The translations under genes and the position numbers were made by a program. A model generated the notes under the pieces. The model worked only from the letters and a program-made list of their open reading frames with translations. It did not search any database and was not told where the DNA came from. A DNA stretch of 64,000 bases. Source: a virus (lineage: Duplodnaviria > Caudoviricetes). Positions within the stretch are counted from its first letter, which is position 1. Every line of letters starts with the position of its first letter. Of this stretch, positions 1-52,267 are shown piece by piece. The stretch lies in the IMG/VR virus record IMGVR_UViG_3300025679_000005. One strand, 5' to 3'.

Positions 1-23
1 CGGCTCAAGCCGTCCCTGGAAAG

Positions 24-1045: not shown

Positions 1046-1059
1046 GCTCATGGACGGTG

Positions 1060-1653: not shown

Positions 1654-1799
1654 GCGTGGTCCTTACACCAAAAGGAGGGCCTCGGAGGAGTTTACGCCGA
1701 AACCTACGATATCCCTTAACTTTGAGCAGGAAATGGACGTACCGATGGTGTATTCCATGACACGGCTTGCGAGAGGTTCGGTGCCAGCAAAAAGGCCGG

Positions 1800-1958
1800 G
1801 ACCGCTCGCAGTAACCGCAAGCTCTCTGAAAACCTAACGATTTTTACCGACACTGGCCCGAGGTGCGTTCTCTGTGTAGACTCTCACTGAGTTGAAACCG
1901 GAGGCTCTCGCAAAACCAGTGCCAGGTATTCGTATTCATACGACCAATCTGAATACGT
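1800..1958 (+). promoter_or_regulatory. Leader of type I array
   Basis: Non-coding; TGTG-TAGACT promoter-like motif ~1873-1882; CTCTCGCAAAA at 1905-1915 and CGCTCGCAG at 1803. Confidence 0.6.
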
Positions 1959-7599: not shown

Positions 7600-7620
7600 A
7601 TTCTTGGAGTTTGACCAAAA

Positions 7621-7646
7621 GTACCGGGAGGGCCTCCTCCCGGTAC
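7621..7646 (+). terminator. GC-rich hairpin between array and cas5
   Basis: GTACCGGGAGG-GCCT-CCTCCCGGTAC, 11-bp stem; no strong U-tract. Confidence 0.45.
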
Positions 7647-7710
7647 TCCCAGAATGAACTTTCGGTGTATGGGGCCTTAAGCAGTTCGCGCCCCAGCCGT
7701 TAGGAAGAGC

Positions 7711-8352
7711 ATGGTCGAAATCAAAAGCAAAATGTACAACATCGAGATGCGAGGCCGCTTGGCCTGCTTCACAGCCGTCGAATCGAAGATCGAGCGGGTC
7801 TCGTACCCCATCCCCACCCCCTCAGCAGTAGAGGGCGCCTTGAGTGGCGTCATGGGGAAGCACGAGATCCAATGGCACTTGTCCCAGTGCCGCGTGCTCT
7901 CCAAGATCAGGCATACGCCCGTTCGTCGCAATGAGCTGAAGGAGTTCGGCAACAATCCTGTCTACATTGAGAACAACCGCGCCCAACGCACCACCCTGTA
8001 CCTGAAGGACGTGCACTACGTGTTCTCGGTCTTCATGACGATTCGGCCCGATGCCTTCACCAGGGACATCGTCAAGTACGAGTCCATGTTCGAACGTCGC
8101 ATGGAAGGCGGGCAGTTCGAATACTACCCGTATTTCGGCTTACGGGAACTCGCGGTCAGTCGTTACGCTTTGGTGGACGACCTGAGCCAGTTCACGCCTA
8201 TCCCGTTCTCACAGAACTTCGGTCGGATGTTCTACGGCCACCAGTATCGTGATCGTCGAGTCGTTTCCAGTAAGTTCTGGGAAGCCAAAATCGTCAGAGG
8301 CATCGTCAACTACCCATCGCGAGATGAGATCTTCGGAGAAATTGAAACATGA
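7711..8352 (+). CDS. cas5: Type I-C Cas5 (Cas5d)
   Basis: GRLACFT..ESKIERVSYPIPTPSAVEG, VRRNE, LYLKDVHY, PYFGLRE motifs typical of Cas5d. Confidence 0.93.
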   Translation: MVEIKSKMYNIEMRGRLACFTAVESKIERVSYPIPTPSAVEGALSGVMGKHEIQWHLSQCRVLSKIRHTPVRRNELKEFGNNPVYIENNRAQRTTLYLKDVHYVFSVFMTIRPDAFTRDIVKYESMFERRMEGGQFEYYPYFGLRELAVSRYALVDDLSQFTPIPFSQNFGRMFYGHQYRDRRVVSSKFWEAKIVRGIVNYPSRDEIFGEIET

Positions 8353-15925: not shown

Positions 15926-16513
15926 ATGACCCAAAATTTGTTTGAGATGCTGCAAGAAGTCCCCGACGACAACTGGCGTGACCCGAATTTCTTCGACACT
16001 TTCGTCGGGCACCTTGAAAGTGATTACTTCAAATTCGAAACGACCACTGAAGTGCTCAGTGAAGACATAGCTGAGGTAACAGACATCCCGAGCCTTCCAC
16101 GCGAGTATGATTTAAGTTTTGAGGCGTTGGACGAACTCCTATTCGTTGCTTTTCTTCATCGGAAGGTTCCTGATTCTTTGTGGATGAGCTACGATCGTTA
16201 CAACGAGCTGACTGACGCACCTCCCTTGGATGCAGACGGCAAGCCTACCTTGATTGTCCTCGAAGATGCCCAAGTTAAGCCTGGGTCCAACGCAGTCCTT
16301 GCAAGGTATAGGGGCTTAGATGTGTTCGTGTGCAGCGTCAATACAGACGATTATCCAGAAGGGGCGGACATTCTTGTAGCCGATAGCAGAGGGAATCTGG
16401 TGGCCTTCACCGAGAAAATCGATCCTACACCACCACAAGAAAAGCCGGTGATTCGACGTTCCCAATGGGACATCCTCAAGACAGAGGACATCCTCAAGGC
16501 CAGCCAAGAGTAA
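15926..16513 (+). CDS. Hypothetical protein
   Basis: 195-aa ORF, promoter-like GGCGTAGAT upstream. Confidence 0.7.
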   Translation: MTQNLFEMLQEVPDDNWRDPNFFDTFVGHLESDYFKFETTTEVLSEDIAEVTDIPSLPREYDLSFEALDELLFVAFLHRKVPDSLWMSYDRYNELTDAPPLDADGKPTLIVLEDAQVKPGSNAVLARYRGLDVFVCSVNTDDYPEGADILVADSRGNLVAFTEKIDPTPPQEKPVIRRSQWDILKTEDILKASQE

Positions 16514-16660
16514 CCCTGGGACCAAGAGGACAAAATTGCGGCTCTGAGCCCTATGGGCCTCACCCTCTCGCTATGGGCGGGGAGCGATGAACTGTCCCAC
16601 CTCAAGAGACGGATTGGCTTGAAGCTGGGTAAAGAAGACTAGCCTTCCCACACTTTGCAG

Positions 16661-16703
16661 GCGAAAGCCCCTCCGAGGAAACACTCCTTCGAGGGGCTTT
16701 CGC
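16661..16703. terminator. Terminator-like hairpin
   Basis: GCGAAAGCCCCTC...GAGGGGCTTTCGC inverted repeat, similar to the 15843 hairpin. Confidence 0.65.
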
Positions 16704-30462: not shown

Positions 30463-31677
30463 TCATAAAGACACCCATTCTTCTCTGGACTTCGGCTGAG
30501 AACCTACCTGCCGTAAGGCCTGTAGGTTCTCGTTGACCGCGCTCAAACCGAGCGCTTTAATGTTACACCCCGCATTCTGGTCACGATCCATGACGAGACC
30601 ACACTCGGGGCAATTGTGGATGCGGAACCGTAGTCCCTTGGGGACGACGGTTCCGCACGCATGACACCTCTGTGTAGTTCCTCGTGGATCAACTCCTACC
30701 GCTAACTTACCAGCTTCTTCCGCTTTGCATTTTAGGCAGTGGATTGTAATTGACCAGGACGCATCCGAGATTGATTTCGCTAGATTGATCTTCGGCTTCC
30801 CATCTCTGGAAGGACCTCTGGAAGGACCTGAGATCATCTCCTGAATCGAGAGGTCCTCGTAACAGACGATGTCATTCGTTTCAAAGAGGGACTTAGCCAG
30901 CTTCCTAGCGTGATCTAGCCTCTGATTCTTGATGTGAGCGTGAGCCCGCTGGACTAGGGTCTTGGCCCGTCTCCTAGAGGAGCTGCCACGGCGCTTGCGT
31001 TGCATAGCGCGTTGGCGTTGGGCCAAAAGGTCTTGCCCCGCCTTGAAATAACGAGGATTCTCGATCGTTGTTCCGTCATCAAGGGTACCGAAGTGGGTGA
31101 GTCCTAGGTCAATGCCGACGGACTTCGTGGGGTCGATCACGACCTCAGGGGCTACTCCCAAATCGCACTGGAAGATCACAAACCATTTACCGGCTTCTCT
31201 TCTAACTGAGACATCAAGGATCTCTCCTTTATGGGGCCGATATTGGTTGAATTTGACTAGGCCTAGCTTGGGGATCTTGACTCTGGCAGAGGAAACCCTC
31301 TTGATCTTAGGCTCAATTTTCGTAGTAGTCTGAAGAGCAAACGAGTCGTAGCGCTTGTAGCTACGGAACCGCGGGAAGCCAGGGGCTTCGCCCGTCTTCA
31401 CGCGGCGGAAGAATGCCTTGAAGGCATCGTCTAATCGCTTGAGCGGAGATCGAAGGATCGTGGCTGGGATCGCTTCGAAGTCAGGGTCTTGAGATCGAAT
31501 GATGGTCAGGGACTTCTGTTGATCATAGAGAGTCAGACTCTTTTTGAACTTTAGGTAGTGACTTTTCCGCTCTTCCAGGGCGCCGTTGTAGAGGCTATTG
31601 CACATGAAGAGCCAGTTGGCCATTCTGGCCTCCTGGTCCTTCGTGGGATACAGCGGATAACGAAAAGAGCGAATCAT
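30463..31677 (-). mobile_element. tnpB: IS200/IS605-family TnpB, no tnpA
   Basis: N-terminal FRYPLYPTKDQ HTH, SVGIDLGL, CYEDLSI, VDPRGTTQRCHACG...CPECG...DRDQNAG; hairpin TTTCATGGGC/GCCCATGAAA (31703-31735) upstream. Confidence 0.93.
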
Positions 31678-33865: not shown

Positions 33866-34423
33866 TCATTGAGCGGCCTCATCACATCCAGTAGTTACAC
33901 CGGACTTTGCGAGCGCCTCGCCAGTCCGTCGACAAATCTCCTTCGAGGCTCCAAAATCCCGATCGTAAGTGCGCCCACAATTAGGACAAGCAAGGATCAG
34001 ACCGTCAAGCTTTCCAGTGGGTTTTATGCAATGGGGGCACACCTGCGACGTTTTGCGAGCGGATACCGCAAAAACCTTGGCACCCGACCGCTCGCAGATC
34101 TGTTTGAGCAGGTAGGGGGCAGAAACATCTCGGTTCTGACGTTTACGCCTAGAACTCTCCGAGGCCGTATCAAGAGCACGCATCTGTGTGCTCTTGAGGT
34201 CCTCTAGGCCGATAGCCACATACATGGCCGCCAGTTTTTTGGCGGCCTTACTGAGAATGTCCAAACGAATATTCTCAATCCGTCGGCGAGCCTTGGCGAT
34301 TTGTTTTTCGGTCAGGTGCTCGTAAGCCACCCAAGAGGCTTCCTCTGTAGTGAGTACTCCCAGTTCGGCCAGATGCCTTCGGTATTGATGCCGATTTCTC
34401 ACAGGAAGGTTGGCGTTTTTCTT
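33866..34423 (-). pseudogene. 5'-truncated TnpB/Cas12-like effector
   Basis: Retains AIGLEDL (RuvC II), SARKTSQVCPHC...CPNCG...DRDFGAS (Zn + RuvC III); no RuvC I or recognition lobe; frame runs into a repeat. Confidence 0.8.
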
Positions 34424-37216: not shown

Positions 37217-37843
37217 GATTTCACTGGTAGCTTCAGTGAATAGAACCACATGTGCAAAAGTTTCTTGTGTGGTATTGTCGTACATGTGCAGTCCCAAATG
37301 GATTGCGGTTTTTGAGCAAACCGGGCAGGATACCAATGGCATGTCCTCGTAAGTGCTCCCGGGCTCTAGTTCTCGCAGGTCCATGCTCCGACCCTAGCAC
37401 ATTCCAATGAAGTATCGTATTCGAATCAGTTGAAAGACTTACGACACTACTTCACGTATAGACGCTACCTGAGCTTTCTGGGCTATCCCCGTCCGTTTTT
37501 ACGTTTACAGCCTCAGACAATCACATCAATGATAGAAAAGGGCTTCATGTCCAAGGACTGCAAGGGCTTGGGCTCGGCCGACATCTTCGAGATGACCTGC
37601 TACATGAGCCAGCAACTGGGCTGGGACAAGGTCTCTGCGGCTATTTTCCCCAAGGACAGCCCGTGCCAAATCGCCTAAGGTATCTCCAAACCGATCAGCG
37701 ACACCTCACCCGTAACTTCCTCGGGTTCGGATTCTTCCTAGCCGGCCTAAGTTTATGGGTCCCTCAGCTATCGGCAATGCTGGCCTACGTCGTCGGGCTA
37801 TGGGCTTACTTCTGGACGGGAAACCGCTCAGAAATGCAGCGCC

Positions 37844-38137
37844 TCAAATCCTGAGGTCAATCCCCGTCTTAGCGATCTTGGACGTGTACGTCTCGATCGT
37901 GGAAGTTGTCCAGATCCAGTCGACTACTCCTGCCAACGGGACCAGTAAGGCTAGCAACGGGGGTATGGCGGTCTTGGCCCAAGGCAAGTTCGCTGCCACG
38001 CTGGCTACGAAAAACAGGAATGCAAAAACCAAAGTAGCTATTCCGTAGTGCTTGGGCAAGTTCTTGCGACGAATCGTGTAGGCCGCCCGTTGCGTGTGCA
38101 TTTCAGAGATCTCAAGCCATTCGGGGAGTTTGGTCAT
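37844..38137 (-). CDS. Small membrane protein (two TM segments), start 4 nt after a CasPhi repeat
   Basis: MTKLPEW...; hydrophobic ATLVFAFLFFVASV and PPLLALLVPLAGVV. Confidence 0.65.
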   Translation of the reverse strand: MTKLPEWLEISEMHTQRAAYTIRRKNLPKHYGIATLVFAFLFFVASVAANLPWAKTAIPPLLALLVPLAGVVDWIWTTSTIETYTSKIAKTGIDLRI

Positions 38138-38141
38138 TTCA

Positions 38142-38161
38142 GTCTCAGCGTACTGAGCAAT
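38142..38161 (-). CRISPR. Minimal CasPhi repeat (20-nt hairpin core)
   Basis: ATTGCTCAGTACGCTGAGAC, identical to the 3' 20 nt of the CasPhi repeat. Confidence 0.85.
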
Positions 38162-38184
38162 AAAAAAGCTTTGTGGGCTCGCGG

Positions 38185-39024
38185 TCATTTCACGAGCCTG
38201 AGGAAGCGGCTGCTCCCGTCATTAGGCCTAGCGTGCAAATATCTGGAAGTTGTGGCGATGTTCCGGTGGCCAAGCGAATTTGAAATTAGGGTCAGCGGGC
38301 AACCTGCGTCAAGTGAATGGGACGCATGAGCGTGCCTCAAGAGATGGGGCCAAAGCTTCAACCCAGCCTTTTTGCCAGTGTCCGTGACAATCCGTCGGGC
38401 ATCCCTGGCCGTGAGCTGCTTCCCACGGTAGGATTTGAAGACAGGTGCCTCATCGACTTCGTTATTGCGACGAAGTGTCCTCAGCTCGTCAGCGATCGTG
38501 CTCGGAAGCATGAGGGTTCGAGTTCGGGTGCCCTTCCCCTGTAGGGTGACACGGAAGTCATTGAGGTCTTTGAACCTGATTCTGACGGCCTCGGCGATTC
38601 GTGCCCCGGAGGCGTATAGGAACCGGATGAGGATCTTGTCTCGACCTAGGTCGGCGATTCCAATGAGGCCTCCCACAGCATCTTCCTCCAAGATCTTCTC
38701 ATTCAAGTTATCCGGGATTTTCGGAGTCCTGAGGATTCGGCCGACGTTGAAGACGAGGTACCCCGTCCGGTATCCAAAACTGAGGAGGCTTTTGATCGTG
38801 CTGATCTTCCTAGCGATCGTGGCCGGCTTCCCGTTGAGGGTCTCTGCCCAGGCCATTACCTGGGCCACAGTCGCCCCCTGGAGGCCGTCGGGCAGCTCCA
38901 TGAGGAAAGCCATGGCCACTGGCTTGTAAGCGATTACGGACGATAGGGGACGGCCGCTGAGCCACAGCTTCATCAGCTGTTCATCGGAGGTGGCTCCGGA
39001 GTGGTTTTCCGGTAGATGGTTCAT
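38185..39024 (-). CDS. XerC/D-like tyrosine recombinase
   Basis: Catalytic R (GARIAE), K (GKG), HxxR (HLLRH), H (LGH), Y (TSRY); SAM-like N-domain. Confidence 0.93.
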   Translation of the reverse strand: MNHLPENHSGATSDEQLMKLWLSGRPLSSVIAYKPVAMAFLMELPDGLQGATVAQVMAWAETLNGKPATIARKISTIKSLLSFGYRTGYLVFNVGRILRTPKIPDNLNEKILEEDAVGGLIGIADLGRDKILIRFLYASGARIAEAVRIRFKDLNDFRVTLQGKGTRTRTLMLPSTIADELRTLRRNNEVDEAPVFKSYRGKQLTARDARRIVTDTGKKAGLKLWPHLLRHAHASHSLDAGCPLTLISNSLGHRNIATTSRYLHARPNDGSSRFLRLVK

Positions 39025-39030
39025 TGGACT

Positions 39031-39057
39031 GTCTCAGCGTACTGAGCAATCAAAAGG
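39031..39057 (-). CRISPR. Solitary CasPhi repeat (27 nt) 6 nt upstream of the recombinase ATG
   Basis: CCTTTTGATTGCTCAGTACGCTGAGAC then AGTCCA-ATG. Confidence 0.9.
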
Positions 39058-39327
39058 CTTAGGCTGGTTTACCCCCGGAACGGTGACTTCGATGGGGGTG
39101 ATGCCGTTGTGTGGGACAACGAGGCAGCTCCACGGGTAGGTCTCTTTGTCGACACCTAAGGCCGTAGTGACTTTCACGATCCACATGTCGAGAAGGTGGC
39201 GGGAAGCCAGACCGCAGATGACGCCTGTCCCAGAGACCGGACCCATGGTGAACATCACTGGTTGGCCGTCTACGTAACAGGGTTTGACTTTGCCTTGGAG
39301 GTCGGTTTGCAGTTCGAAGTTGTACAT
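39034..39327 (-). CDS. Hypothetical protein lying between two CasPhi repeats
   Basis: 97-aa ORF with SH3-like composition; stop codon lies inside the repeat. Confidence 0.6.
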   Translation of the reverse strand: MYNFELQTDLQGKVKPCYVDGQPVMFTMGPVSGTGVICGLASRHLLDMWIVKVTTALGVDKETYPWSCLVVPHNGITPIEVTVPGVNQPKPFDCSVR

Positions 39328-39377
39328 GATGAACCTAACGGCAGGGGGCGGCGGGACTTAAGCCCCTGAGGTGGAGG

Positions 39378-40148
39378 GTCTCAGCGTACTGAGCAATCAA
39401 AAGGCTTCGCAGGCTGGGTCTGTCGCGAGCTGGACCAATACGGTGACGTGCTTGTCTCAGCGAACTGAGCAATCAAAAGGTTTCGCAGGATCCAGAGCTA
39501 CCAGGCGCTACAACGGAAGTGGCATCAGTCTCAGCGTACTGAGCAATCAAAAGGTTTCGCAGGAGGCGGTAGTCCTTGATGCTATCGTCGGCAAAGTCTC
39601 GTCTCAGCGTACTGAGCAATCAAAAGGTTTCGCAGGGTCGGGGCGGCGGGGGCAGATTCATCAGACCAAGTACGTCTCAGCGTACTGAGCAATCAAAAGG
39701 TTTCGCAGGAGTGGCCCATAGACCTGGTTCCCTTGGGCGTCCCTCTTGTCTCAGCGTACTGAGCAATCAAAAGGTTTCGCAGGGCCAGGGGCCGGCGGGC
39801 CGTTGTACTGGCCCGGACGAGTCTCAGCGTACTGAGCAATCAAAAGGTTTCGCAGGTTCCTTAGTGGGACTCTTAGAGGATCCTATAAGTAAGAGTCTCA
39901 GCGTACTGAGCAATCAAAAGGTTTCGCAGGGTCGGGTGTTGGAGTCGATGAGGTTGGCTTAGCGTACGTCTCAGCGTACTGAGCAATCAAAAGGTTTCGC
40001 AGGCCCCGACTCCACGGGATCATGTTGGGGATCGATCCTGTCTCAGCGTACTGAGCAATCAAAAGGTTTCGCAGGGCGTCGTGTTCATCGATCACAACTA
40101 CAGGGATCCCCTGTCTCAGCGTACTGAGCAATCAAAAGGTTTCGCAGG
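39378..40148 (-). CRISPR. CasPhi array, 11 repeats and 10 spacers
   Basis: Repeat CCTGCGAAACCTTTTGATTGCTCAGTACGCTGAGAC; 3' end matches the CasPhi repeat family; directly downstream of casPhi. Confidence 0.98.
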
Positions 40149-40239
40149 TCGCACGTCAGAAACAGTGAATTTTCAAAGACCTACCGAATGCTTTGCGAGC
40201 GGTTCGGTAAATTAGAGATCAGCAGGGGGTATTACACCG

Positions 40240-42570
40240 TCATTCAGCGGCTTCAGCATCTTCTTCTGGCTTAAAAGCAGCTTTGCGAGCGCCTACGCTC
40301 TTTTTGGCATCACCGGACCGCTCGCTTTCTGGCTTAGGCATAGGCTTGCCGGTCAGAGCGACTCGTTCAATGTTGTCCGTCGCGATCTCAAGGTCAGCAT
40401 GAGCTACAAAGCCGCACTTCTGGCATGCGAACCGTTCTCCGTCCCGATTGGCCTTGTCACAGTGCCCACATTTGGTACAGGTGATGCTGGTCCGGTGGGG
40501 GGTTACTTCAATGGTTGGGACCCCCTTGTGGGCCCCCAATTCGGTCAAGGACTTGTGGAAGGCTTGCATGAACCAACGATTCTCCCTCTTCTTGATGAAG
40601 AAAGCGTCCCATCCGCCATCAGCCCATTTTCCGTTCCCATGCATCATCTTGATATTGAGGTCTTCGAAGGCCATAACGACGACCTCACATTGAGAGGATT
40701 TTGCTGCCTTGTGTCGCAATTGATTGAGAATGCGCTTCGTCAGTTCTTGTTTCCAGGTTGAGAGTCGGAGGTACTCGGGAGAAGTCCTCTGAAGGTCCCA
40801 TTGTGCCTCCCGATATGCTTCGGCAGCCTCCGGACTCACTTCTATTCGAACACCCTCAGTTCCCTTGAATTTGATGTCTCGTCGCAACATCTCGGGCCTA
40901 TTTTTGGGTTTGAGGGTAGCTACTTTCCGGTCGCCGCCCTTCTCAAGATAGGCCGTAGCAAGGAATTCTGTGTATGGAGTCATCTTGTCCCAAGCGATCA
41001 TCTCCGGATTGAGCCCTAGTGCGGCGCACACCCTAGCCTTACAGAGAGCTGGGGTGTCGTTTTTAGCCCTTAGGATCTCTGACTTATGCTCTGGAGATAG
41101 TCGCTCAACAGCCAAATTGGCCAACTTGTCCCGTAGACGATCACTGGCCACTCGATATCTAGCGATCTCTTTCCCATCGCTGCTGTCATTCGACAGTAGC
41201 TCTCGCAATAATGTCTCGTGGGATAGCTGGCCGTCGCTCAATTGGGTTACCCTAGAGACTTTGGCGGCAATAGGATTGGTTTGACCCAGGTCAATTGATA
41301 CTAGAACCACAGGCCCCGATTTTGTCAACTCGGACAGGATTTCAGGAGCGTTCTTTGTCTTCACCATTTTGGCAGAGCAAGCTTGACCCGCCTTGTAGAT
41401 AAAAGTGCAGACGCCCTGCCGCATGTCGATAGAGGGGTCCCCCGTGAACAGGCTTAGCAAGTCAGGGATCGTGGACTTTTCCTTCAGCAATTTCCGATAG
41501 CGAGCATTTCGCAGCAACCCTCGAATATCGATGATGACCCATTCGTCTTGGAAGCGCATCAATACAGGGATCGCACCTTTGAAGCGCCCCGATTGGATCT
41601 GATCTGTTCTCGAATTCTTCCGGTTTGGTGTTCCGGACCGTTTGGAGCACGTAGCCTTAGGCTTGTTAAGACTTGCCGAGTACCAATCTCGACGGCGCCT
41701 GTTCTTGCGACGATTGAGCAGAGGATGCTGCCACTCGGGCACATACCCCGGCTGTCCCTTTGGAATGGTCATGCGATCGTGAGGCAAGTAGTCCGTGAGG
41801 GCCTCAGCGGACTCTTTGGCAAGGCATCCGCTAGGTAACCCAATAAAGTCACTAGGGCAGGATTTGATCACTACTGCCTGATAGCCTGGAATCGTTTGGT
41901 TCACTCCCGGAGGATGAATCAAGTATCCTCGTTCATCATGGGCTTTCTCCTCCACGAAGGTAGCCTCTTCTCCTGCTTCCTTCCGGCGCTTCGTCTTCGA
42001 CAGATTCTTCTCGTTGCGGTTCTCAACCTTTTTGAGTACGCCCTCTCGAATGCTGATAGCCGATTTGATGAGGGCGTTCTGTGCCTGAGCGTGGAGGCTA
42101 GGGGCGTCCAGTCCCAACACTTCATAGAAGGCAGCTCGGGTTTCCTCATTGAGCTTGGATTTGCCATCAACTTCTAGGGAGGCTACCGCTTCGTTGAAGG
42201 CCGTCTCTGACAGACCATCTTGTTTGGGACGACCCTTGGTAGCGGGGATCCCGAAGATCTTCTCCTGGATTTGACGAGAAACTCGAACGAGGTCCCATTC
42301 GATAAAGGGCCTGCTTTGAGCAATTACGAAGGCTTTGGCGGGCGGTTTAACGTCCTTGAGCTTTGCCTGACCCTTGCCAGTCAGGTAGCTGATGACGGCT
42401 TCGGGTCCGCCATCTCTCAGCTTCTTGCCAGCAATCTTGTAATCCTGGGACTCAAATTTCAAGCCTGGGAAATGCGCCCGCAAAAGCAAAGACAATGGAG
42501 AAGGGGGTGTGGTTTTATTGCTCATGTGCTCTCTGGTCGAAACGGCCGTATTTGACATTTCTATTTGCAA
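40240..42570 (-). CDS. cas12j: CasPhi (Cas12j) type V effector; start probably ATG 42558 or the next Met
   Basis: HFPG, IDIRGLLRNARYR, FTGDP, VSIDLGQTNPI (RuvC I), AFEDLN (II), KKRENRWF, HRTSITCTKCGHC...CQKCG...ADLEIA (III): recognisable CasPhi signatures. Confidence 0.96.
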   Translation of the reverse strand: MQIEMSNTAVSTREHMSNKTTPPSPLSLLLRAHFPGLKFESQDYKIAGKKLRDGGPEAVISYLTGKGQAKLKDVKPPAKAFVIAQSRPFIEWDLVRVSRQIQEKIFGIPATKGRPKQDGLSETAFNEAVASLEVDGKSKLNEETRAAFYEVLGLDAPSLHAQAQNALIKSAISIREGVLKKVENRNEKNLSKTKRRKEAGEEATFVEEKAHDERGYLIHPPGVNQTIPGYQAVVIKSCPSDFIGLPSGCLAKESAEALTDYLPHDRMTIPKGQPGYVPEWQHPLLNRRKNRRRRDWYSASLNKPKATCSKRSGTPNRKNSRTDQIQSGRFKGAIPVLMRFQDEWVIIDIRGLLRNARYRKLLKEKSTIPDLLSLFTGDPSIDMRQGVCTFIYKAGQACSAKMVKTKNAPEILSELTKSGPVVLVSIDLGQTNPIAAKVSRVTQLSDGQLSHETLLRELLSNDSSDGKEIARYRVASDRLRDKLANLAVERLSPEHKSEILRAKNDTPALCKARVCAALGLNPEMIAWDKMTPYTEFLATAYLEKGGDRKVATLKPKNRPEMLRRDIKFKGTEGVRIEVSPEAAEAYREAQWDLQRTSPEYLRLSTWKQELTKRILNQLRHKAAKSSQCEVVVMAFEDLNIKMMHGNGKWADGGWDAFFIKKRENRWFMQAFHKSLTELGAHKGVPTIEVTPHRTSITCTKCGHCDKANRDGERFACQKCGFVAHADLEIATDNIERVALTGKPMPKPESERSGDAKKSVGARKAAFKPEEDAEAAE

Positions 42571-42604
42571 GTGGCTTAAATCGGTGTATCTACTTACACC
42601 GATT

Positions 42605-42666
42605 TCTCGATTGCTCAGTACGCTGAGACTGTGAGCCGCCCTTTTGATTGCTCAGTACGCTGAGAC
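42605..42666 (+). CRISPR. Two-repeat CasPhi mini-array divergent from casPhi, ~12-nt spacer
   Basis: TCTCG-ATTGCTCAGTACGCTGAGAC, TGTGAGCCGCCC, TTTTG-ATTGCTCAGTACGCTGAGAC. Confidence 0.88.
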
Positions 42667-42840
42667 AGCATTGGCAATGGCCTGAGCAACTCTGCGGATG
42701 TCTTCCCTGAGCTTGTCGGTAGGAGTTTCGTCGTAGACTCCTTCCCTGACCCATTTCACCTTTTCAGGCGGGATGTCGTCGAATTCAGGGAAGCAACGAA
42801 AGGTAGCTAGGCGGTGACGATAGCAGACAACAGCGTTCAT
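42652..42840 (-). CDS. Small hypothetical protein ending inside the mini-array repeat
   Basis: 62-aa ORF, ATGA-coupled to the upstream gene. Confidence 0.5.
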   Translation of the reverse strand: MNAVVCYRHRLATFRCFPEFDDIPPEKVKWVREGVYDETPTDKLREDIRRVAQAIANAVSAY

Positions 42841-43715
42841 TGTGCCGGCTGATAGACTGAGAAGTTTCCGCCGACGTACGACTCTTTCTTGTCGTCCAAA
42901 ATATCTGACAAGGACATGATGAAGTCGCCGTTCTTGGTCCGGGCGCCGTCATTGACGAAACCGCCTCGAATTCCTGAGGTGAACATCCACTGGTGTTCCT
43001 TTGGCACACTGTAGTTGATGTCATTGCGAATACCCCCACCCTGGCGAATACCCTCCGCTCGCTTCGAGCCGAAAATCAGGGTGTGGTCTCGCCGAACAAG
43101 CTGATCCATCCTCGGCGGGCTCCCATCGTGAGCGTCAACAGCGGGGGCGAACAAGGTGTTTTCGAAACCAGCTCGGGGCTTGTACCACCAGAAGATGGGC
43201 TCAGCCTCCCTGAGAGTGCTCATATCGAAGCAGCAGATGGCGATCGGCCATTCAGGGTAGAGCTTGGCCATTACCGTCAGGAACGGCATCCGGATGTTTG
43301 GGCGTTTACTCTCCGGCACCTCCTTGAGGGCCGAGTTCAACCCCGCGGCTGAAGATGCCAGGGCGATCGTGTAGGACCCCGACTCGATGATCTGATAACT
43401 CAAAGAATCAGAGTCATTCAGCATAACGCCCTTGATCATCCCAAGGGATCTTCTTGTTCTGGGCTTCAGCGCCTTCACAGCCTTGTGGTAATCCTTGAGG
43501 ATGCCTTTGAAGGCCGTGGCGTCGATCACGTTCTCAGGACCTAGCGGACCCAATGCCGGAATCGGCAGAATCATGGCGTTGGGTCCGTGGCCGAAGGAGG
43601 TCACGCTGTTCTGGTAGCCTAGAACGTGAACGAGGCCGTCCCCAGGTTTCTCGACCTCAGCCGAGTAGATGATTGTATCAGAGAGACTGACTCCGGCTTC
43701 GATGGTACAGCACAT
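42837..43715 (-). CDS. Hypothetical protein
   Basis: 292-aa ORF; promoter motif 11 nt before ATG. Confidence 0.75.
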   Translation of the reverse strand: MCCTIEAGVSLSDTIIYSAEVEKPGDGLVHVLGYQNSVTSFGHGPNAMILPIPALGPLGPENVIDATAFKGILKDYHKAVKALKPRTRRSLGMIKGVMLNDSDSLSYQIIESGSYTIALASSAAGLNSALKEVPESKRPNIRMPFLTVMAKLYPEWPIAICCFDMSTLREAEPIFWWYKPRAGFENTLFAPAVDAHDGSPPRMDQLVRRDHTLIFGSKRAEGIRQGGGIRNDINYSVPKEHQWMFTSGIRGGFVNDGARTKNGDFIMSLSDILDDKKESYVGGNFSVYQPAQ

Positions 43716-43736
43716 GGTGGAGCCTATACACCAGTT

Positions 43737-44513
43737 CTAAGCAATGTGCGAATGCGGATGGGCCTCGCATCGTTCACAAAGTACTATCGAGTCGGGCCAG
43801 CCTTCGAGCATGTATTCTCCAGCGGGTGTGCGTCCGCATCTGCCCTGCTCAGCGAGAAAGCACTCACATGTGAGATTCGGTGACTTGAAAGCACGGATGG
43901 ATACTACTCCCTGCTTGGCAACGGGAAAACAAATCTCACACGAAGCGTTTGGCCCGATCCCACCGTGGTCCGTGCAACGAATGGACATAGCCGTAATGTG
44001 ATCCTTGTGGGACACAGAGTCCTGCGCAAGGGACAGGGGGACCTTGGTGAGCATAATGTCCGCCCAGATAGAGGGCCAGTGATCCAACATCCCCTTGAGG
44101 CAGCGATCCATGTGCTCGATGATCGCTAACGGAGCCCCGTGGGTGTTCCTGGCATAGCTTAGCGACACGGGGCACTCAAGGTACACAAGCTCTGGGACGT
44201 GCCCAAATGCTCTGGCCACATTGATGTACGGGGCCAGGTCGTAGACCATGGCATTGGTGTTGTCGACGATGACCGTGACTTCTTTACCTAGTGGCCGTGG
44301 GTCTCCCATGTAAGGCGAAGCCGTCACCAACTTCACGAACTTGCGAAGACAAGCATGGTGGGCATTCGGGCGCTCTTCGATCTTGAACTCGTACCCGTTC
44401 GGACCTTCATGCCAGTGATCCGCAGAGCAGATCGAGACATCGCCCCAGGTGTTCTCCTTGATCCAGGTGCTTTTGCCGGCGCCCGGGAGGCCTATGAGGA
44501 TGATGACTCGCAT
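43737..44513 (-). CDS. P-loop kinase (AAA_33/polynucleotide kinase-like)
   Basis: GLPGAGKST Walker A, ICSADH, VIVDNTN, SYARNTHG. Confidence 0.85.
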   Translation of the reverse strand: MRVIILIGLPGAGKSTWIKENTWGDVSICSADHWHEGPNGYEFKIEERPNAHHACLRKFVKLVTASPYMGDPRPLGKEVTVIVDNTNAMVYDLAPYINVARAFGHVPELVYLECPVSLSYARNTHGAPLAIIEHMDRCLKGMLDHWPSIWADIMLTKVPLSLAQDSVSHKDHITAMSIRCTDHGGIGPNASCEICFPVAKQGVVSIRAFKSPNLTCECFLAEQGRCGRTPAGEYMLEGWPDSIVLCERCEAHPHSHIA

Positions 44514-44516
44514 GGA

Positions 44517-45116
44517 TCAGCTCTCCCAGGTGGGGGTCGACCAGTGTTCTTGCCAAACATGGACGACAGCAGGCTTTGCCTTCGGCTCGGGTCGGAAATA
44601 AGGCTTCCTGTGATTGGGGTGAGCGCCCATCTTCATCGCGATCTCAGAATCCAGCTCTAGGTTGGAGCCGTTGTACACAGGCTCAGCCGGCCTCTCAGCA
44701 TTGACTTGGGGCTCTGCTGGCTTCTCATAAATCTGCTCTGGCCACATGTCGGTCCATAAAATCTGCTCGGCCCACATATACCCAGGGGCGTTGGCCCTAC
44801 CTTCGCACTTCCACTTACCGGAGTAGGCGTTACAGGCACCTTTACGGACAAGCTCAGACATCGCGACGAAGATGCCCCCTAAGAAAGCCGCTCTTGTACC
44901 AACAGGGAGAGTTTCTGGAAGGATCTTGGGCAACCTGCGAGCCCTGATGCGTTTCCCCATTTCAATGATATCCACAGGGAGAACCGAGGCATGTGGAAAG
45001 CACTCATAGGAGATCACGGCTTCTTTCAGGTCAGACACCCCATATATTGGATCATCAGCCCACTCCAAGATAGCAGCCGTCGCTTCTTTAGCACCGCAGC
45101 ATTCGCACTTTGCCAT
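44517..45116 (-). CDS. Hypothetical protein with N-terminal CxxC
   Basis: GGTG-TAGGAT 10 nt before ATG. Confidence 0.65.
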   Translation of the reverse strand: MAKCECCGAKEATAAILEWADDPIYGVSDLKEAVISYECFPHASVLPVDIIEMGKRIRARRLPKILPETLPVGTRAAFLGGIFVAMSELVRKGACNAYSGKWKCEGRANAPGYMWAEQILWTDMWPEQIYEKPAEPQVNAERPAEPVYNGSNLELDSEIAMKMGAHPNHRKPYFRPEPKAKPAVVHVWQEHWSTPTWES

Positions 45117-45136
45117 GGATCGATCCTACACCGATT

Positions 45137-45397
45137 TCAATGGGGAAGCCCTGAGCCCAAAGTGACAACTCGGTCAATGCTCACGAACATCACCGAACGA
45201 TTGGCGGGGTAGGAGAAGTCGAAGCTATGACAACGCCCGCACTTTGGACAGGTATGCTGATAGATGTCGGCTATTACGTAGACCGAGTCCTGACCCTCGT
45301 CATTGAGGACTTCGCCGCAACCACATAGGAGAACGCACCTTCGCCTGGCCATAGCGGCCCTGGCTTTGAGCCAGTTACGTATTTTATAGATCATCAT
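45137..45397 (-). CDS. Small Zn-ribbon protein
   Basis: LCGCGE...TCPKCG; ATGA-coupled. Confidence 0.55.
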   Translation of the reverse strand: MMIYKIRNWLKARAAMARRRCVLLCGCGEVLNDEGQDSVYVIADIYQHTCPKCGRCHSFDFSYPANRSVMFVSIDRVVTLGSGLPH

Positions 45398-45765
45398 GGG
45401 ATTTCCTCTGTCGAGCTGAGGCGTTCCCACGAGGTGGGCACGACCTCGGCGGTAGTCCGGGGGATGTTCCCCAGAGCCCAATCACAAGCCACGCCAAGCA
45501 CTACCATTACTGAAAAGTAGCTGATTTTATGTTCTTCGAGGACGCTCATCACAGCCTTTTTGACCGCATTGACGTTGGTGTCTCCACCAACGGACTCGAC
45601 CAGGAAGCATACGCCCTCCCCCAAAGTGCCGTTGGTCTCGATCGTAAGCAGGCCGTCATTAGCCATGACCACTGGAGATACCCTGTAACCTTTGTGGACC
45701 ATACTCGCAATAATGGCGTCCGCAAAGGCAGAGGTGAGAATGGTGATGACGACGGTACAGACCAT
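45394..45765 (-). CDS. Hypothetical protein, paralog family with PTSWERL tag
   Basis: Similar to 45770 and 47931 ORFs. Confidence 0.7.
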   Translation of the reverse strand: MVCTVVITILTSAFADAIIASMVHKGYRVSPVVMANDGLLTIETNGTLGEGVCFLVESVGGDTNVNAVKKAVMSVLEEHKISYFSVMVVLGVACDWALGNIPRTTAEVVPTSWERLSSTEEIP

Positions 45766-45769
45766 GACC

Positions 45770-46135
45770 CTATTCCGACTGAGCTAGGCGTTGCCAAGCG
45801 GTGGGTCTGTCCCCTGTTTGGTCGACTACATGGCTCCCACAATGCCAGACACAATCCTTGTCGTCTAGGGACTCACAGACAAGTATCGAGTAGTATACCG
45901 TATGTAATTCCTGTAGTAACCCTCGAAGCTCCTCAGAAACAGCTTCTATGTCTAACTCTTCGTCGCCGTTGTCCATATGAACTGCTAGCGTTGCGCCTAC
46001 TCGGCCCTCCTCTACTTCAACGGCTCGATTGCTTATTGAGATAGGGGATACCGTCCAACCCGTGTTTAGGAATGCGGCGAGGAGGGCATCCGATTGCTGG
46101 GTGGACGGCAGAGTGATTAGTACGAAGTATCTCAC
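45770..46135 (-). CDS. Hypothetical protein, paralog family with PTAWQRL tag
   Basis: As above. Confidence 0.7.
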   Translation of the reverse strand: MRYFVLITLPSTQQSDALLAAFLNTGWTVSPISISNRAVEVEEGRVGATLAVHMDNGDEELDIEAVSEELRGLLQELHTVYYSILVCESLDDKDCVWHCGSHVVDQTGDRPTAWQRLAQSE

Positions 46136-46392
46136 GGAACGTTCTCGAAGGCCTCATTGACCATGGCCGCGTGGCGCTCGTCCTTGAGCGCTTGCTTGGC
46201 GTTCTCTCGGACCTTGGCCTGCTCAGCGACGATAGCATCAAATTCAGCCATCTCATCCTGAGCCTTCGTCCAAGCCTCTTGGGCAGCCTCCCAACGCTTC
46301 AACGTGTCCGCTGGGACATCGTACGAACCCTTTGGATCTACGGAGAAGTTGTAGTCGTAGGCAGTGTCTCGGTCCAGTTTGATCTTGGGCAT
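46132..46392 (-). CDS. Hypothetical protein
   Basis: GGTG-TAGGAT 10 nt before ATG. Confidence 0.65.
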   Translation of the reverse strand: MPKIKLDRDTAYDYNFSVDPKGSYDVPADTLKRWEAAQEAWTKAQDEMAEFDAIVAEQAKVRENAKQALKDERHAAMVNEAFENVP

Positions 46393-46434
46393 GGCCCGAT
46401 CCTACACCGGTTCGCTAGGCTCCAGCTTCTCCTC

Positions 46435-46499
46435 GTCTCAGCGTACTGAGCAATCGAGAGCCTCACTCTACACCGTCTCAGCGTACTGAGCAATCAGCA
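46435..46499 (-). CRISPR. Two-repeat CasPhi mini-array with a 15-nt spacer and own promoter
   Basis: TGCTG-ATTGCTCAGTACGCTGAGAC, GGTGTAGAGTGAGGC, TCTCG-ATTGCTCAGTACGCTGAGAC; TCGGTG-TACTAT immediately upstream. Confidence 0.9.
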
Positions 46500-46533
46500 A
46501 TCACCCATAGTACACCGATAATTTATCTCTTGG

Positions 46534-47088
46534 GTGACATCTCGACGTGATGCAGATATTCGTCCTAGATTGAAGGAATTGCTCAAAGCCACGTCGTTTT
46601 TGATTGACGAACTGGGGATAGGCCATGGCCGAGTCAGGATTGACGTAGCCGCCATCGACACCGACTTCCATGGGTTCGAGATCAAGGCCGAAGCCGATAC
46701 CTTGAAGAGGCTTCCCCGGCAAGTCAGGTACTACAGCAAGGTCTGCGACTTCGCCTCCCTAGTGGTGCCGGCCAAACACTTGGAGAAGGCCACCCCGTTG
46801 ATTCCGGCCTGGTGGGGACTGTACGACGCTGAGACCTTGGCTGTCTTGAGAATGCCACAGAGGAACCCTACGTTGACCCCTAGAGCGATTGCCGAGGTCT
46901 TGTGGAAGGATGAGTCCTTGGCCTTCCTCGCCTCAGCTAAAGCCGGTAAGGGGATGTCCTCTCAGAGAGTGGCCAAGGTCTGGGACCGTGTGGCGAGAAC
47001 CTTTCCCTTGGACGAGATCAGAGCCGAGGTTCGGAGACGGTTAGTAGCCCGTCGGAATGAAGACGGAACCTACAAGCTGAGAGCCTAG
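46534..47088 (+). CDS. sce7726-family PD-(D/E)xK-like protein
   Basis: RVRIDVAAI...FHGFEIKAEADTLKRLPRQVRYYSKVCD family pattern. Confidence 0.8.
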   Translation: MTSRRDADIRPRLKELLKATSFLIDELGIGHGRVRIDVAAIDTDFHGFEIKAEADTLKRLPRQVRYYSKVCDFASLVVPAKHLEKATPLIPAWWGLYDAETLAVLRMPQRNPTLTPRAIAEVLWKDESLAFLASAKAGKGMSSQRVAKVWDRVARTFPLDEIRAEVRRRLVARRNEDGTYKLRA

Positions 47089-49319: not shown

Positions 49320-50054
49320 GAGGTCCATCCCGCCGGCTGCAATGATTGCCCGCCTGGAGGGACGGAGGGCGTCATCAAAGGGCTTCTCTGGCTTGATCTT
49401 GGAAAAGCCAGCCAGCTCTCTCTGAAAAAATGACCCTGGTTCTTCGATGGTTCGGCCAGTTTCGCTCCGAATGTAATCAAGTGTCATCCTGTATTCATCA
49501 GGAAGTCTCTCAGAGAACCCCTGAAGCATCGCAGCTGCACTGGCCATGGTCATTCCACCACGGCGGCCGACACGGTAGCCCACACGACGGTCCTCAGTGG
49601 GTTCGTGTGTATCCCCGTGCATGAAGTCTCCGCCAAGGTGGAATTCACCCATAATTTGTTGCTCGTAAAGGGATCTAGGCTCAGCAGGCCTCTCTGGCAT
49701 GTACACAGTAGCCCAAGAATCCAGCCCTGGGTCTATGCCCACGTTTATCGTCCCTACAGAGGCCGCATCGGGGTCAGGCGGAGTCGTCGTCACCAAGCCA
49801 CTGGGAAACTGCCAGACAACCTGAGAAGTGTGCCTGAGGATGTCCTGAACAGCGTCGACACTGATCCGTCTCTCGTCGTGAACGAGGTAGGGCTCTATGC
49901 GGATCGGTACCTCGATAGCTCTCTGGATAGCCGTGTGTGCAGCGGTCCCTACTGCTAAATTGGCCCTGGCCCTGGCCTCGATCCCACTGAAGTCAGTGTT
50001 GAGAAAGATTGGGCGATCAGGGGGTGGCAACGAATCGCTTTCGGTAAGCCTCAC
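49281..50054 (-). CDS. Hypothetical protein
   Basis: 257-aa ORF. Confidence 0.55.
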   Translation of the reverse strand: MRLTESDSLPPPDRPIFLNTDFSGIEARARANLAVGTAAHTAIQRAIEVPIRIEPYLVHDERRISVDAVQDILRHTSQVVWQFPSGLVTTTPPDPDAASVGTINVGIDPGLDSWATVYMPERPAEPRSLYEQQIMGEFHLGGDFMHGDTHEPTEDRRVGYRVGRRGGMTMASAAAMLQGFSERLPDEYRMTLDYIRSETGRTIEEPGSFFQRELAGFSKIKPEKPFDDALRPSRRAIIAAGGMDLSEGALVIGEDVG

Positions 50055-50400
50055 CTAGGGCGACCCATTTGGGAAAGCGGCCCCTTGCTTGAAAGACGGA
50101 CAATTCGTCGAATTTGTACACGCCTTCGAAGCCGATGATGAAGGCACAGGCTTCAGCTTCTTCGCAGTTTAGGAGGTCTGCCGCCTCTGGGGGCGTTGGA
50201 TAGTAGTTGGCCGTTCGACCTGAGAGCATGCTTTCAACTGCCCCAAGGGGACAGCACGTGTGCCCCTTCTTTTTGAAGATAGCGCCGATGGCGTCCTGGA
50301 CCCCCATCTTCTGGACGTTGATTGCGTAAGTCACCGAATCCGCGATCTTGGAGGCCGCTCGGCGGTAGCGTTGTTCAGGGGTCTCAATTGTCATGTTCAT
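50017..50400 (-). CDS. Hypothetical protein, paralog of 53650-53967
   Basis: CCPLGAV...EAEACAFIIGFEG...LGEAYRKRF. Confidence 0.7.
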   Translation of the reverse strand: MNMTIETPEQRYRRAASKIADSVTYAINVQKMGVQDAIGAIFKKKGHTCCPLGAVESMLSGRTANYYPTPPEAADLLNCEEAEACAFIIGFEGVYKFDELSVFQARGRFPKWVALGEAYRKRFVATP

Positions 50401-50825
50401 TGTCCAGGGTTAGAGGCCACTGGCTTCGACTTGTAGGGGTTTGCGATACCGGACGTGTCTTCCTCTAGTTCGATGTGATCAGGCGTCACAGCGTGGCTAG
50501 TGGGGGTAACCACTGGTTTTACACCAGCGACAGGTCGTTGCTGAACCACCACCGGCTTGACGCCCGCGTCAAGGAGAGTCTCGACGGCTACGACCTTAGG
50601 GGCGTCATTGACTTGAGCCGCCTGCCAGCGCTTCACCACTGCCATCGCCTCGGCATCAACCGTCGGTACCGGCATTACAATGACAGTGGACGAGGCCGTT
50701 GGCGCCGTTACGGCTACAGGTTTCGGCTGGCTAGAGCTGCCGAACATGTAGCCACCCACGAAAATGGCGATGGCGAACACGAAGGTGAGAACGATATAGG
50801 GGGCGTCTTGGCGAGTCATGATCAA
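50397..50825 (-). CDS. Membrane-anchored Pro/Thr/Val-rich protein (target of a self spacer)
   Basis: N-terminal TM helix IVLTFVFAIAIFVGG; low-complexity stalk. Confidence 0.7.
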   Translation of the reverse strand: MIMTRQDAPYIVLTFVFAIAIFVGGYMFGSSSQPKPVAVTAPTASSTVIVMPVPTVDAEAMAVVKRWQAAQVNDAPKVVAVETLLDAGVKPVVVQQRPVAGVKPVVTPTSHAVTPDHIELEEDTSGIANPYKSKPVASNPGQ

Positions 50826-50874
50826 TAGAACGGATCCATAACCCAGAAGTTAAGGGCTACCTGGTTTCCGGCCC

Positions 50875-51351
50875 GTGACCACTTGAAAGGGTTTCGTCTC
50901 CCTCTCTGACCTCAGCGCCCTCCCACGAGTCACGTTCCGCGTGGAGTGACCACTTGAAAGGGTTTCGTCTCCCTCTCTGACCAAAGCTAAGTCCACCAAG
51001 GACCCCAAGAACATGTTCGTGACCACTTGAAAGGGTTTCGTCTCCCTCTCTGACGAGCGAATGCGTCCCCCTGCCTCTCGTGAGCAATTCACGTGACCAC
51101 TTGAAAGGGTTTCGTCTCCCTCTCTGACTCTCTTAGGGATTTGATCCCTGATTCGCGATTTTGCGTGACCACTTGAAAGGGTTTCGTCTCCCTCTCTGAC
51201 CTCGGCATCAACCGTCGGTACCGGCATTACAATGACAGTAGTGACCACTTGAAAGGGTTTCGTCTCCCTCTCTGACACCAAGGTTTCGGTTCTCAGCTAC
51301 CCACCTGGAGCCCTCGTGACCACTTGAAAGGGTTTCGTCTCCCTCTCTGAC
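50875..51351 (-). CRISPR. Orphan CRISPR array 4, 7 repeats and 6 spacers
   Basis: Repeat GTCAGAGAGGGAGACGAAACCCTTTCAAGTGGTCAC (minus); spacers 35-40 nt; GAGAGGG/CCCUUUC stem (G-U wobble) and promoter at 51467 favour minus orientation; no adjacent cas. Confidence 0.95.
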
Positions 51352-51460
51352 GCGGTCCGTCAGGTTAGCGGCAATGAGGGTGTGGGAGGCTACGTAGTAT
51401 ACAGCCCCGTTGGTGGCTTTGACTTCGAAGGCTCTGAGGGCGGGGACGGTCGGCATGGTC

Positions 51461-52267
51461 TCAGTCTACACCAAAAACCTGGTAGTTCAGGTAGAACCCC
51501 TCGTAGGTGTAGAACTTCAGCAACCGCTCGACACGGATCGTCCGGTCATTGTCCGTGAGTACGTAGCAATCGTCTTCGTGGACTGCCACGATGACTACGG
51601 CACTGCTCCGACGCCTGTCCTTGGTCCGCCAGCGCTGGCCCTTCGCTGGCCCTGGGATCTGACCGCCAATAGGAGCGGATATGAAAATGATCTCGGGATC
51701 ACAATCGACTTTTGGTTCAGGCGGCTTGGGGTCCGGAACGATCCTTGATCCCGAGGTCGGTTCAGATCCCCCAGCACTCTTAGGGTATGCCTCATGGTAC
51801 AGTTCACCTAGGCCGATCGTCAAACGATCCATCAGGTGAGAAGCTTTGAGTTTCGCGCTATCTACGAGGATTTGCAGTATCGCGCTATCTACGAGGATTT
51901 GCAGTATCATACGTGCTCCAACGGTCAATTTCTGATGGGTCTTAAGGGTCGGCCAACGTCTTTCGACGCAGTACCGGCAGAGGCAGCAGCTGCCGTCGCA
52001 TTCGACCTTCCCACAAGTCTCACAGGGGTCAGGCGGGATCGGACAGTCTTCGCAAAAGACAATGCAGCCAGCCAATGTCGAGGCTGTTCTTGATGCCCAA
52101 GCATTCGGGACAGGATTCGTTTTCGTTGTCGAAGGTGTATAGGCCGCCGTCACAGCGATAAACGCCGTCTGGGAGGGGCACAGGCTCGGTGTAACCCCAT
52201 CCGACGTAGTGAGCAGCCCCAGTGCACCGAAGGGTAACGTAGGGCTGGGAGCTGTAGTCACAGCCAT
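51461..52267 (-). CDS. Hypothetical protein (frame and start uncertain)
   Basis: ORF track; overlapped by an alternative ORF 52029-52289; contains a 27-nt tandem duplication. Confidence 0.45.
   Translation of the reverse strand: MAVTTAPSPTLPFGALGLLTTSDGVTPSLCPSQTAFIAVTAAYTPSTTKTNPVPNAWASRTASTLAGCIVFCEDCPIPPDPCETCGKVECDGSCCLCRYCVERRWPTLKTHQKLTVGARMILQILVDSAILQILVDSAKLKASHLMDRLTIGLGELYHEAYPKSAGGSEPTSGSRIVPDPKPPEPKVDCDPEIIFISAPIGGQIPGPAKGQRWRTKDRRRSSAVVIVAVHEDDCYVLTDNDRTIRVERLLKFYTYEGFYLNYQVFGVD
51854..51907. repeat. 27-nt tandem duplication
   Basis: CGCGCTATCTACGAGGATTTGCAGTAT x2, in frame. Confidence 0.9.

Follow-up and report, generated by a model that had tools for sequence, protein, structure and literature searches.

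Two trimmed CasPhi repeat handles beside casPhi in a huge peat phage: a possible CRISPR RNA-like control unit

CasPhi (Cas12j) is the smallest self-sufficient nuclease among CRISPR systems and serves as a genome editor; to our knowledge, nothing is known of how a CasPhi phage controls it. Here we analyse a 64-kilobase (kb) stretch of DNA, hereafter the window, from virus record IMGVR_UViG_3300025679_000005, a huge phage from a peat metagenome with a whole genome of about 464–465 kb, and focus on a small unit of two truncated CasPhi repeat copies (42604–42666, plus strand) lying 80 nucleotides (nt) from the casPhi ATG. The casPhi gene (40240–42525, minus strand) encodes a protein of 761 amino acids (aa) that matches CasPhi-2 (PDB 7lys, E 2e-135) and conserves the RuvC residues D412, E621 and D711, invariant in the CasPhi alignment, such that the genome carries an apparently intact cognate nuclease gene; as a single query in IMG/VR, the protein returned zero relatives. 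The main CasPhi array (39376–40171, minus strand) consists of 11 repeats of 36 nt with spacers of 36–40 nt (spacing 72–76) and has its own CGGTGTA motif at 40239–40233, directly 3' of the casPhi stop. In the sense of the CRISPR RNA (crRNA), its repeat ends in the hairpin CTCAG-TACG-CTGAG followed by AC. What CasPhi phages have in common is casPhi and the array alone; the flanks are not syntenic, which indicates that the module moves.

The unit itself is built from repeat sequence of array quality. Exact matches to the 21-nt repeat core number 17 in the window, against 0 expected from shuffles: 11 in the array, single copies at 39031 and 38142 that sit just ahead of start codons, and two pairs, at 46435/46475 and 42609/42646. 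Only the latter pair (42609–42629 and 42646–42666) lies on the plus strand, with the 11 array repeats and the four other extra copies all on the minus strand, in agreement with an original prediction, made from the sequence of this stretch, of two short repeats running opposite to the main array. A covariance model of the last 26 nt of the repeats from 17 different CasPhi loci (a stem of 5 base pairs (bp), 100% paired, with three of the five pairs covarying), run with filters off, found exactly these 17 sites and scored the two copies of the unit at 34.4 and 36.7 bits, compared with 36.7 for the array repeats. Handle 1 (42604–42629, plus strand) is a 26-nt, 5'-truncated copy that retains the CasPhi-binding part in a TCTC variant, and handle 2 (42641–42666, plus strand) comprises 26 nt identical to the 3' part of the array repeat; both have the 3' hairpin with a 5-bp stem and 4-nt loop, the terminal GAC and the preceding GATTG-like bases of a CasPhi handle, and both lack the first 9–11 nt of the repeat. 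The mature Cas12j handle comprises 26 of the 36 nt (bioRxiv 10.1101/2025.09.16.676532), so that what is missing from both copies is the part lost on maturation, leaving a guide of 10–12 nt between them. This spacer, guide 1 (TGTGAGCCGCC, 42630–42640, plus strand), had been put at about 12 nt; it is indeed very short, with its exact length depending on where copy 2 starts, and neither it nor the trimmed repeats fit a canonical CRISPR array of full-length repeats with spacers of 36–40 nt. Where guide 2 would lie (42667–42686, plus strand), the genome sequence is ordinary and runs antisense to the final codons of the open reading frame (ORF) at 42652–42840, as had been proposed; it matches only itself, and in the phage DNA the bases before it are GAC rather than a T-rich protospacer-adjacent motif (PAM). 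An independent Logan assembly, probably of the same sample, has the identical layout within one 10.4-kb contig, and the DNA contigs of that sample contained no alternative joint and no inversion of the unit. The sequencing runs listed for this DNA comprised one DNA run, probably from the source sample, and zero RNA runs. Folding of the plus-strand RNA gave no structure beyond the two hairpins (z −0.5; a 6-bp leader–spacer pairing was not significant), and an Rfam search of 37800–47000 returned zero families.

Ahead of the handles lies the predicted palindrome, AAATCGGTGTA-TCTACT-TACACCGATTT (42578–42605), formed by two copies of the CGGTGTA motif. The rightward copy (AAATCGGTGTA, 42578–42588, plus strand) stands 16 nt before handle 1, and the same 11-mer precedes the gene at 45116 (minus strand), while the leftward copy (TACACCGATTT, 42595–42605, minus strand) is the only CGGTGTA upstream of casPhi. 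The latter is 69 nt from the casPhi ATG, compared with 12–19 nt in the related loci L001, L002, L005 and L018, and from its position casPhi would have a long 5' leader of about 65–69 nt (42526–42594, minus strand). CGGTGTA occurs 29 times in the window (mean for permuted 7-mers, 9.7), and 13 of these 29 copies are followed at 8–13 nt by an ATG-initiated ORF of at least 40 aa, compared with 8% for the permuted 7-mers, over a wider range. The same gene-start pattern was found in nine further CasPhi-phage loci, where a comparison of 55 sites revealed conservation of the motif and of a purine-rich stretch after it, and of nothing else. Sites in the window include 14828, 15319, 32609, 45133, 46409 and 53983, often after a T-rich run, and the motif stands 8–13 nt before starts also in L001, L002, L005, L008, L010, L013, L017 and L018, loci that are otherwise only distantly related. 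Because CGGTGTA is also found ahead of units that do not code for protein (the main arrays of the window and L009, each of the two handles at 46.4 kb, and the solo handles of L005 and L009), it seems to act in transcription and not in translation, and the lack of a conserved −35-like partner makes a phage-specific polymerase or factor likely; a scan of 42300–43000 for sigma-70-like promoters and terminators found nothing. We take CGGTGTA to be a gene-start or probable promoter signal, and the motif's enrichment and fixed spacing to ATGs are consistent with the promoter nature originally ascribed to the palindrome. Its geometry had been misjudged, though: rather than divergent and back-to-back, the two copies are face-to-face, with the rightward copy to the left of the leftward one. 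Nine close pairs of motifs on opposite strands were compared: eight are back-to-back, and the one exception, at 42582/42595, has its copies facing each other across 6 bp. Both predicted transcripts would start in or next to the 6-bp dyad centre TCTACT (42589–42594), each within or beside the other's motif, and simultaneous use is therefore unlikely.

On its other side, the unit ends at a breakpoint. ORF62 (42652–42840, minus strand) is a real gene whose last four codons (VSAY) and stop derive from the reverse complement of handle 2, the stop codon falling inside the hairpin of copy 2. A homologue, P0025, of 72 aa and 84% identity, is encoded on a 1.6-kb contig (L046) and has a different and longer C-terminus: where the window protein ends in AQAIANA-VSAY, the L046 protein instead has 15 other residues, followed by genes that are absent from the window. 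Homology at the DNA level spans 43088 to 42668 and ends 1–2 nt from the 3' end of copy 2, placing the synteny breakpoint at the 3' edge of handle 2. The unit thus delimits, on the upstream side, a module that has changed place, and a junction at the border between repeat and spacer would be the expected outcome of spacer–target recombination. Two other origins were considered and rejected. Homing, in which insertion of a handle would create a guide against the uninserted allele, gains no support from the L046 allele, which in this single comparison has three PAM-proximal mismatches (positions 1, 6 and 7) and a CTC flank; for a flip of the unit out of the casPhi leader, neither inverted repeats bounding the segment nor a variant contig turned up. 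In L001, a solo handle (16244–16269, plus strand) is antisense to its flanking genes and overlaps the stop of the gene at 16255–16674, which also ends in VSAY as ORF62 does, the two proteins being unrelated. ORF62 has no Pfam or PHROG family, and ORF292 has neither such a family nor an IMG/VR relative.

Units of similar composition recur. The closest is a sister unit in the same window (46435–46500, minus strand), with two truncated handles 40 nt apart and a CGGTGTA before each, which, like 42604–42666, keeps only the CasPhi-binding half of the repeat; handle 1 with its TCTC prefix is identical to 46435–46459 at 25 of 25 positions, as the original prediction had noted of this variant. In the sister unit, the 15-nt spacer plus the final base of the first handle makes up the CGGTGTA motif before the second. 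Promoter-plus-handle units were also found at L005:5437–5481, at L009:8144–8182 and in a mini-array of L011, which bears out the proposed maintained family. Outside the window, another handle copy from the same sample, at similar depth, follows TGGTGTA plus 7 nt, and the phage genome probably holds more promoter–handle units than the window shows.

The L011 mini-array (IMGVR_UViG_3300048837_000975, 7617–7873) has a sigma-70-like promoter followed by five 5'-truncated CasPhi handles just upstream of casPhi, and all five of its guides match the adjacent gene of 249 aa (6824–7573) from guide position 1. The exact matches extend over 11, 17, 32, 27 and 14 nt with flanks of TCG, TCA, TCA, TTC and CCT, four of which fit TBN; the spacers are 22–36 nt long, and two of the matches are full length with a plausible PAM, which could expose the phage to its own cutting. 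By comparison, the guides of that locus's main array had no match longer than 10 nt. Self-directed mini-arrays of trimmed handles next to casPhi thus do exist; their target gene in L011 belongs to no Pfam or PHROG family. This mini-array resembles the window unit in that a promoter is followed, directly upstream of casPhi, by CasPhi handles truncated at the 5' end, with guides towards the adjacent upstream gene, and differs from it in having five units on the casPhi strand, longer spacers, exact self-matches of 11–32 nt and a sigma-70-like promoter.

Across 17 CasPhi loci we counted 22 extra handle clusters, among them ones directly before start codons (L005, L008, L012, L043 and L044), inside casPhi ORFs (L014, L018 and L044) or antisense to flanking genes (L001:16253 and L009:9449). 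Four of the 22 are within 400 nt upstream of casPhi, where 0.45 would be expected (P about 9e-4, for a zone chosen afterwards); these come from L011, L043, L044 and L018, the one in L018 being a stretch that resembles the repeat and lies in the opening codons of casPhi. The last three have sense-strand handles in the casPhi leader (L043:7929–7945 and L044:7965–7981) or, as a repeat-like stretch, in its first codons (L018:7968–8002), and the L044 handle ends 19 nt before the casPhi ATG, so that its guide position covers the ribosome site. Such leader handles suggest that CasPhi may bind its own mRNA. Other copies lie within genes: a near-full repeat in the L018 casPhi (9030–9100) has on its flanks a direct duplication of 11 nt (ACGGGGGATCC), inside the conserved LFTGDPV motif, and would be expected to cause a frameshift, repeat-like stretches in L014 (9062–9095) and L044 (9362–9389) are in frame inside casPhi, and a 22-nt exact handle copy in L009 (9449–9470, minus strand) lies antisense inside the conserved RNase HII domain of the gene upstream of casPhi and leaves the frame unbroken. 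A single inverted handle was also found 540 nt upstream of casPhi in L009. The proposed look for the same unit upstream of other casPhi genes gave a mixed picture: handles are enriched near casPhi in L011, L043, L044 and L018, while L001, the closest orthologue (58% identical CasPhi, same repeat), is without the unit.

Functionally, we tentatively read the unit as a promoter-driven crRNA-like gene that would load CasPhi with non-cutting guides and compete with the casPhi promoter, a reading to which we give somewhat less than an even chance. Transcription would run rightward from the motif 16 nt before handle 1, and CasPhi would bind and cut at both handles, releasing one RNA whose handle carries a guide of 10–12 nt, too short for DNA cutting to be licensed, and another whose handle is followed by neighbouring genome sequence as its guide, a guide that would find no PAM in the phage DNA. 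CasPhi would be occupied by both RNAs while cleavage is not triggered. With the facing motifs only 6 bp apart, polymerase would probably use one at a time, thus trading casPhi mRNA against CasPhi-occupying RNA, which could provide homeostatic or timing control of the nuclease. The unit probably originated by recombination at a repeat–spacer junction that joined the CasPhi module to ORF62, and such an origin is compatible with a present function. In favour of the crRNA-like gene are the array-grade handles cut to mature-handle length, the conserved motif and the unique face-to-face pair; the predicted 69-nt casPhi leader, the enrichment of handles upstream, the self-directed guides of L011 and the breakpoint at the handle edge would also fit.

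Several observations weigh against this crRNA-like gene. The promoter role of CGGTGTA is one we infer from the motif. At the corresponding place L001 has an unremarkable protein gene, divergent and equipped with a motif of its own, and the inverted two-handle layout was found in no other locus, being absent from L001 and about 15 more. A strict scan of IMG/VR for two handles 8–28 nt apart found nothing, and the same scan of GTDB genomes returned five hits, all unrelated tandem repeats; the 15 hits of an IMG/VR scan for the motif plus a handle all fell in unrelated coding sequence and had no hairpin. That 10–12 nt is below the cleavage threshold is general Cas12 knowledge rather than a property established for this protein, a benefit from occupying one's own nuclease is hypothetical, and the perfect handles could reflect recent origin or gene conversion by the array rather than selection. 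The last point leads to the main rival, a possible yet doubtful one in our estimation, namely that the unit is a functionless recombination scar, either the inverted remains of an array end or the product of spacer–protospacer recombination by which the CasPhi module and the 3' end of ORF62 became joined, its handles looking intact through recency or continuing conversion by the array. A scar would account for the L046 homology stopping 1–2 nt from the handle edge and the loss of about 15 native codons from ORF62, for the absence of the unit from L001 and of any target found for the short spacer, and for the non-syntenic flanks of a moving module; the repeat inserted in L018 with its 11-nt flanking duplication indicates that such events happen. 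It would leave unexplained, however, why the promoter motif is perfect and at its usual distance, why both copies are trimmed to mature-handle length, and why a sister unit 3.8 kb away likewise has two handles, a 37–40 nt period and the shared TCTC variant.

Other functional readings depend on where the guides point and on which strand is active. We consider it improbable that the unit is a trans-acting repressor similar to CreR, in which a 10–12 nt guide would lead CasPhi to bind but not cut, and thereby silence, a PAM-flanked site outside the window, in the phage or its host. By our estimate, a 12-mer plus PAM would be specific enough for a genome of a few Mb; CreR and, reportedly, Cas9 tracr-L work with matches of 10–11 nt, and L011 provides guides with PAM-proximal matches of 11–17 nt. 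The sister unit's 15-nt spacer also agrees at 13 of 15 positions with a promoter-like site at 51472 (minus strand) that has a TTT flank. For guide 1, by contrast, no second copy with up to one mismatch was found in the window, and with two mismatches there were 10 hits besides the spacer itself against 7 expected, i.e., chance level, the best of them (38077 and 30467) being mismatched within the first five, PAM-proximal, guide positions. Nothing convincing emerged from 534 kb of related loci (45 loci) either, and the resemblance of the spacer to the promoter-proximal site 38077 in the window and to L001:4229, at 10–11 of 12 positions, was discarded as chance level. Neither guide has a seed match in the casPhi promoter region (42400–42700), just as the original prediction had seen no match of the spacer there, and its comparison with cas-regulating or antitoxin mini-crRNAs finds no support in guide pairing, since there is none near casPhi and none with up to one mismatch in the window or the 534 kb. 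A regulatory role, which absence from orthologous loci together with lack of both a transcript and a target was to count against, is thus weakened by L001 and by the target search, yet not refuted, because that search covered 64 kb of a 465-kb genome.

If instead the minus strand were the active one, anti-repeats in the 3' end of the ORF62 mRNA, in which the reverse complement of handle 2 is necessarily present and that of handle 1 probably so, could form pairs with the handles of crRNA or the RNA of the mini-array, and the palindrome would form a hairpin that ends this mRNA before casPhi. Compatible with this are the ORF62 stop within the reverse complement of handle 2, an 11-bp hairpin in the predicted minus-strand fold, and the recurrence of handles antisense to flanking genes (L001:16253 and L009:9449), but the terminator scan was empty, only UUU follows the hairpin, the fold z-score is −1.5, and single copies of the motif elsewhere are clearly gene-start signals rather than hairpins. 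CasPhi, moreover, reportedly works without a trans-activating CRISPR RNA (a finding attributed to Pausch in 2020), and altogether we regard an active minus strand as highly improbable. Even less credible, in our view, is an antisense regulator or insulator, whereby transcription of the unit would run into ORF62 and ORF292, collide or pair with the operon transcripts and shield casPhi from read-through; the geometry agrees, as everything from guide 2 onward is antisense to the upstream operon, but handles would not be needed for it, and no terminator or conserved structure follows them.

The crRNA-like gene that we tentatively prefer has partial counterparts among known systems. CreR and CreA are crRNA-like regulatory RNAs that derive from degenerate mini-CRISPRs of types I-B, I-E and V-A (bioRxiv 10.1101/2023.03.10.532045). 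Like them, the window unit has two repeat-like elements with a conserved handle beside a cas promoter, in the cas locus itself, a putative promoter of its own and a guide predicted to bind rather than cut. CreR spacers, however, pair with a PAM-adjacent stretch of a cas or toxin promoter, a pairing that the window unit is without; its handles are perfect where those of CreR are degenerate, its guide is physically short where that of CreR is partly matching, and it belongs to type V-J and to a phage, unlike the CreR systems. Racr are solitary repeat units acting as RNA anti-CRISPRs (PMC10651486), and Cracr are likewise viral RNAs (bioRxiv 10.1101/2024.10.29.618823). Shared with these are promoted repeat copies in a viral genome, here directly 3' of a putative promoter, by which a Cas effector would receive a guide that is useless or reprogrammed. 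Racr and Cracr, though, mimic host repeats against host immunity, Racr without a cognate cas gene alongside, whereas the handles of the window are those of the phage's own array, with the cognate nuclease gene 80 nt away. The CreR, Racr and Cracr papers do not mention Cas12j, and our literature search found nothing combining Cas12j with mini-arrays.

Virus-borne mini-CRISPR arrays have reportedly been implicated in inter-viral conflict (by Medvedeva et al. in 2019 and Faure et al. in 2019); these too have one or two spacers within viruses, but full-length ones against related viruses, whereas the spacer here is 10–12 nt with no target identified. Spacer-mediated recombination between phages and CRISPR arrays is reported for staphylococcal host arrays and for transduction (Varble et al. 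in 2019) and would give a repeat–spacer border junction as at 42666/42667, although no donor spacer is known here. New in the present analysis are the synteny breakpoint at the outer edge of handle 2 and the clustering of handles upstream of casPhi in other phages.

Further features of the window concern other mobile or CRISPR-related elements. One main-array spacer (39551–39590) is 70% complementary over 40 nt, 15 of them exact, to 46227–46266, in the gene just downstream of the sister unit. Less than 10 kb from casPhi lie a TnpB-like gene (30463–31623, minus strand; 386 aa, with OrfB_IS605 and a Cas12f1-like zinc ribbon) and a fragment of 154 aa that shares this zinc ribbon (33866–34330, minus strand), both from the L007 gene calls. 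A second, much larger repeat family (GTTTCAATTCACCTCAGAGG...), whose k-mers occur in 40–55 copies, covers about 1–7000 and 50000–52000 of the window and is evidently another type of CRISPR array in the same phage.

More broadly, the handles found before genes, in casPhi leaders and in self-directed mini-arrays raise the idea, which we hold to be rather unlikely, that CasPhi phages use trimmed copies of their own crRNA handles as a general device of gene control, with the window unit as a face-to-face switch between casPhi mRNA and a non-cutting guide RNA, a feedback or timing circuit undescribed for type V-J. The self-directed mini-array of L011 is a case with known targets, open to direct testing. 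If the crRNA-like gene proposed here and its relatives are real, crRNA-like RNAs would serve phages to control the nuclease that they encode, and perhaps further genes of theirs, a second handle could fix a guide at a non-cutting length, and CRISPR modules could join phage genomes at repeat–spacer borders.

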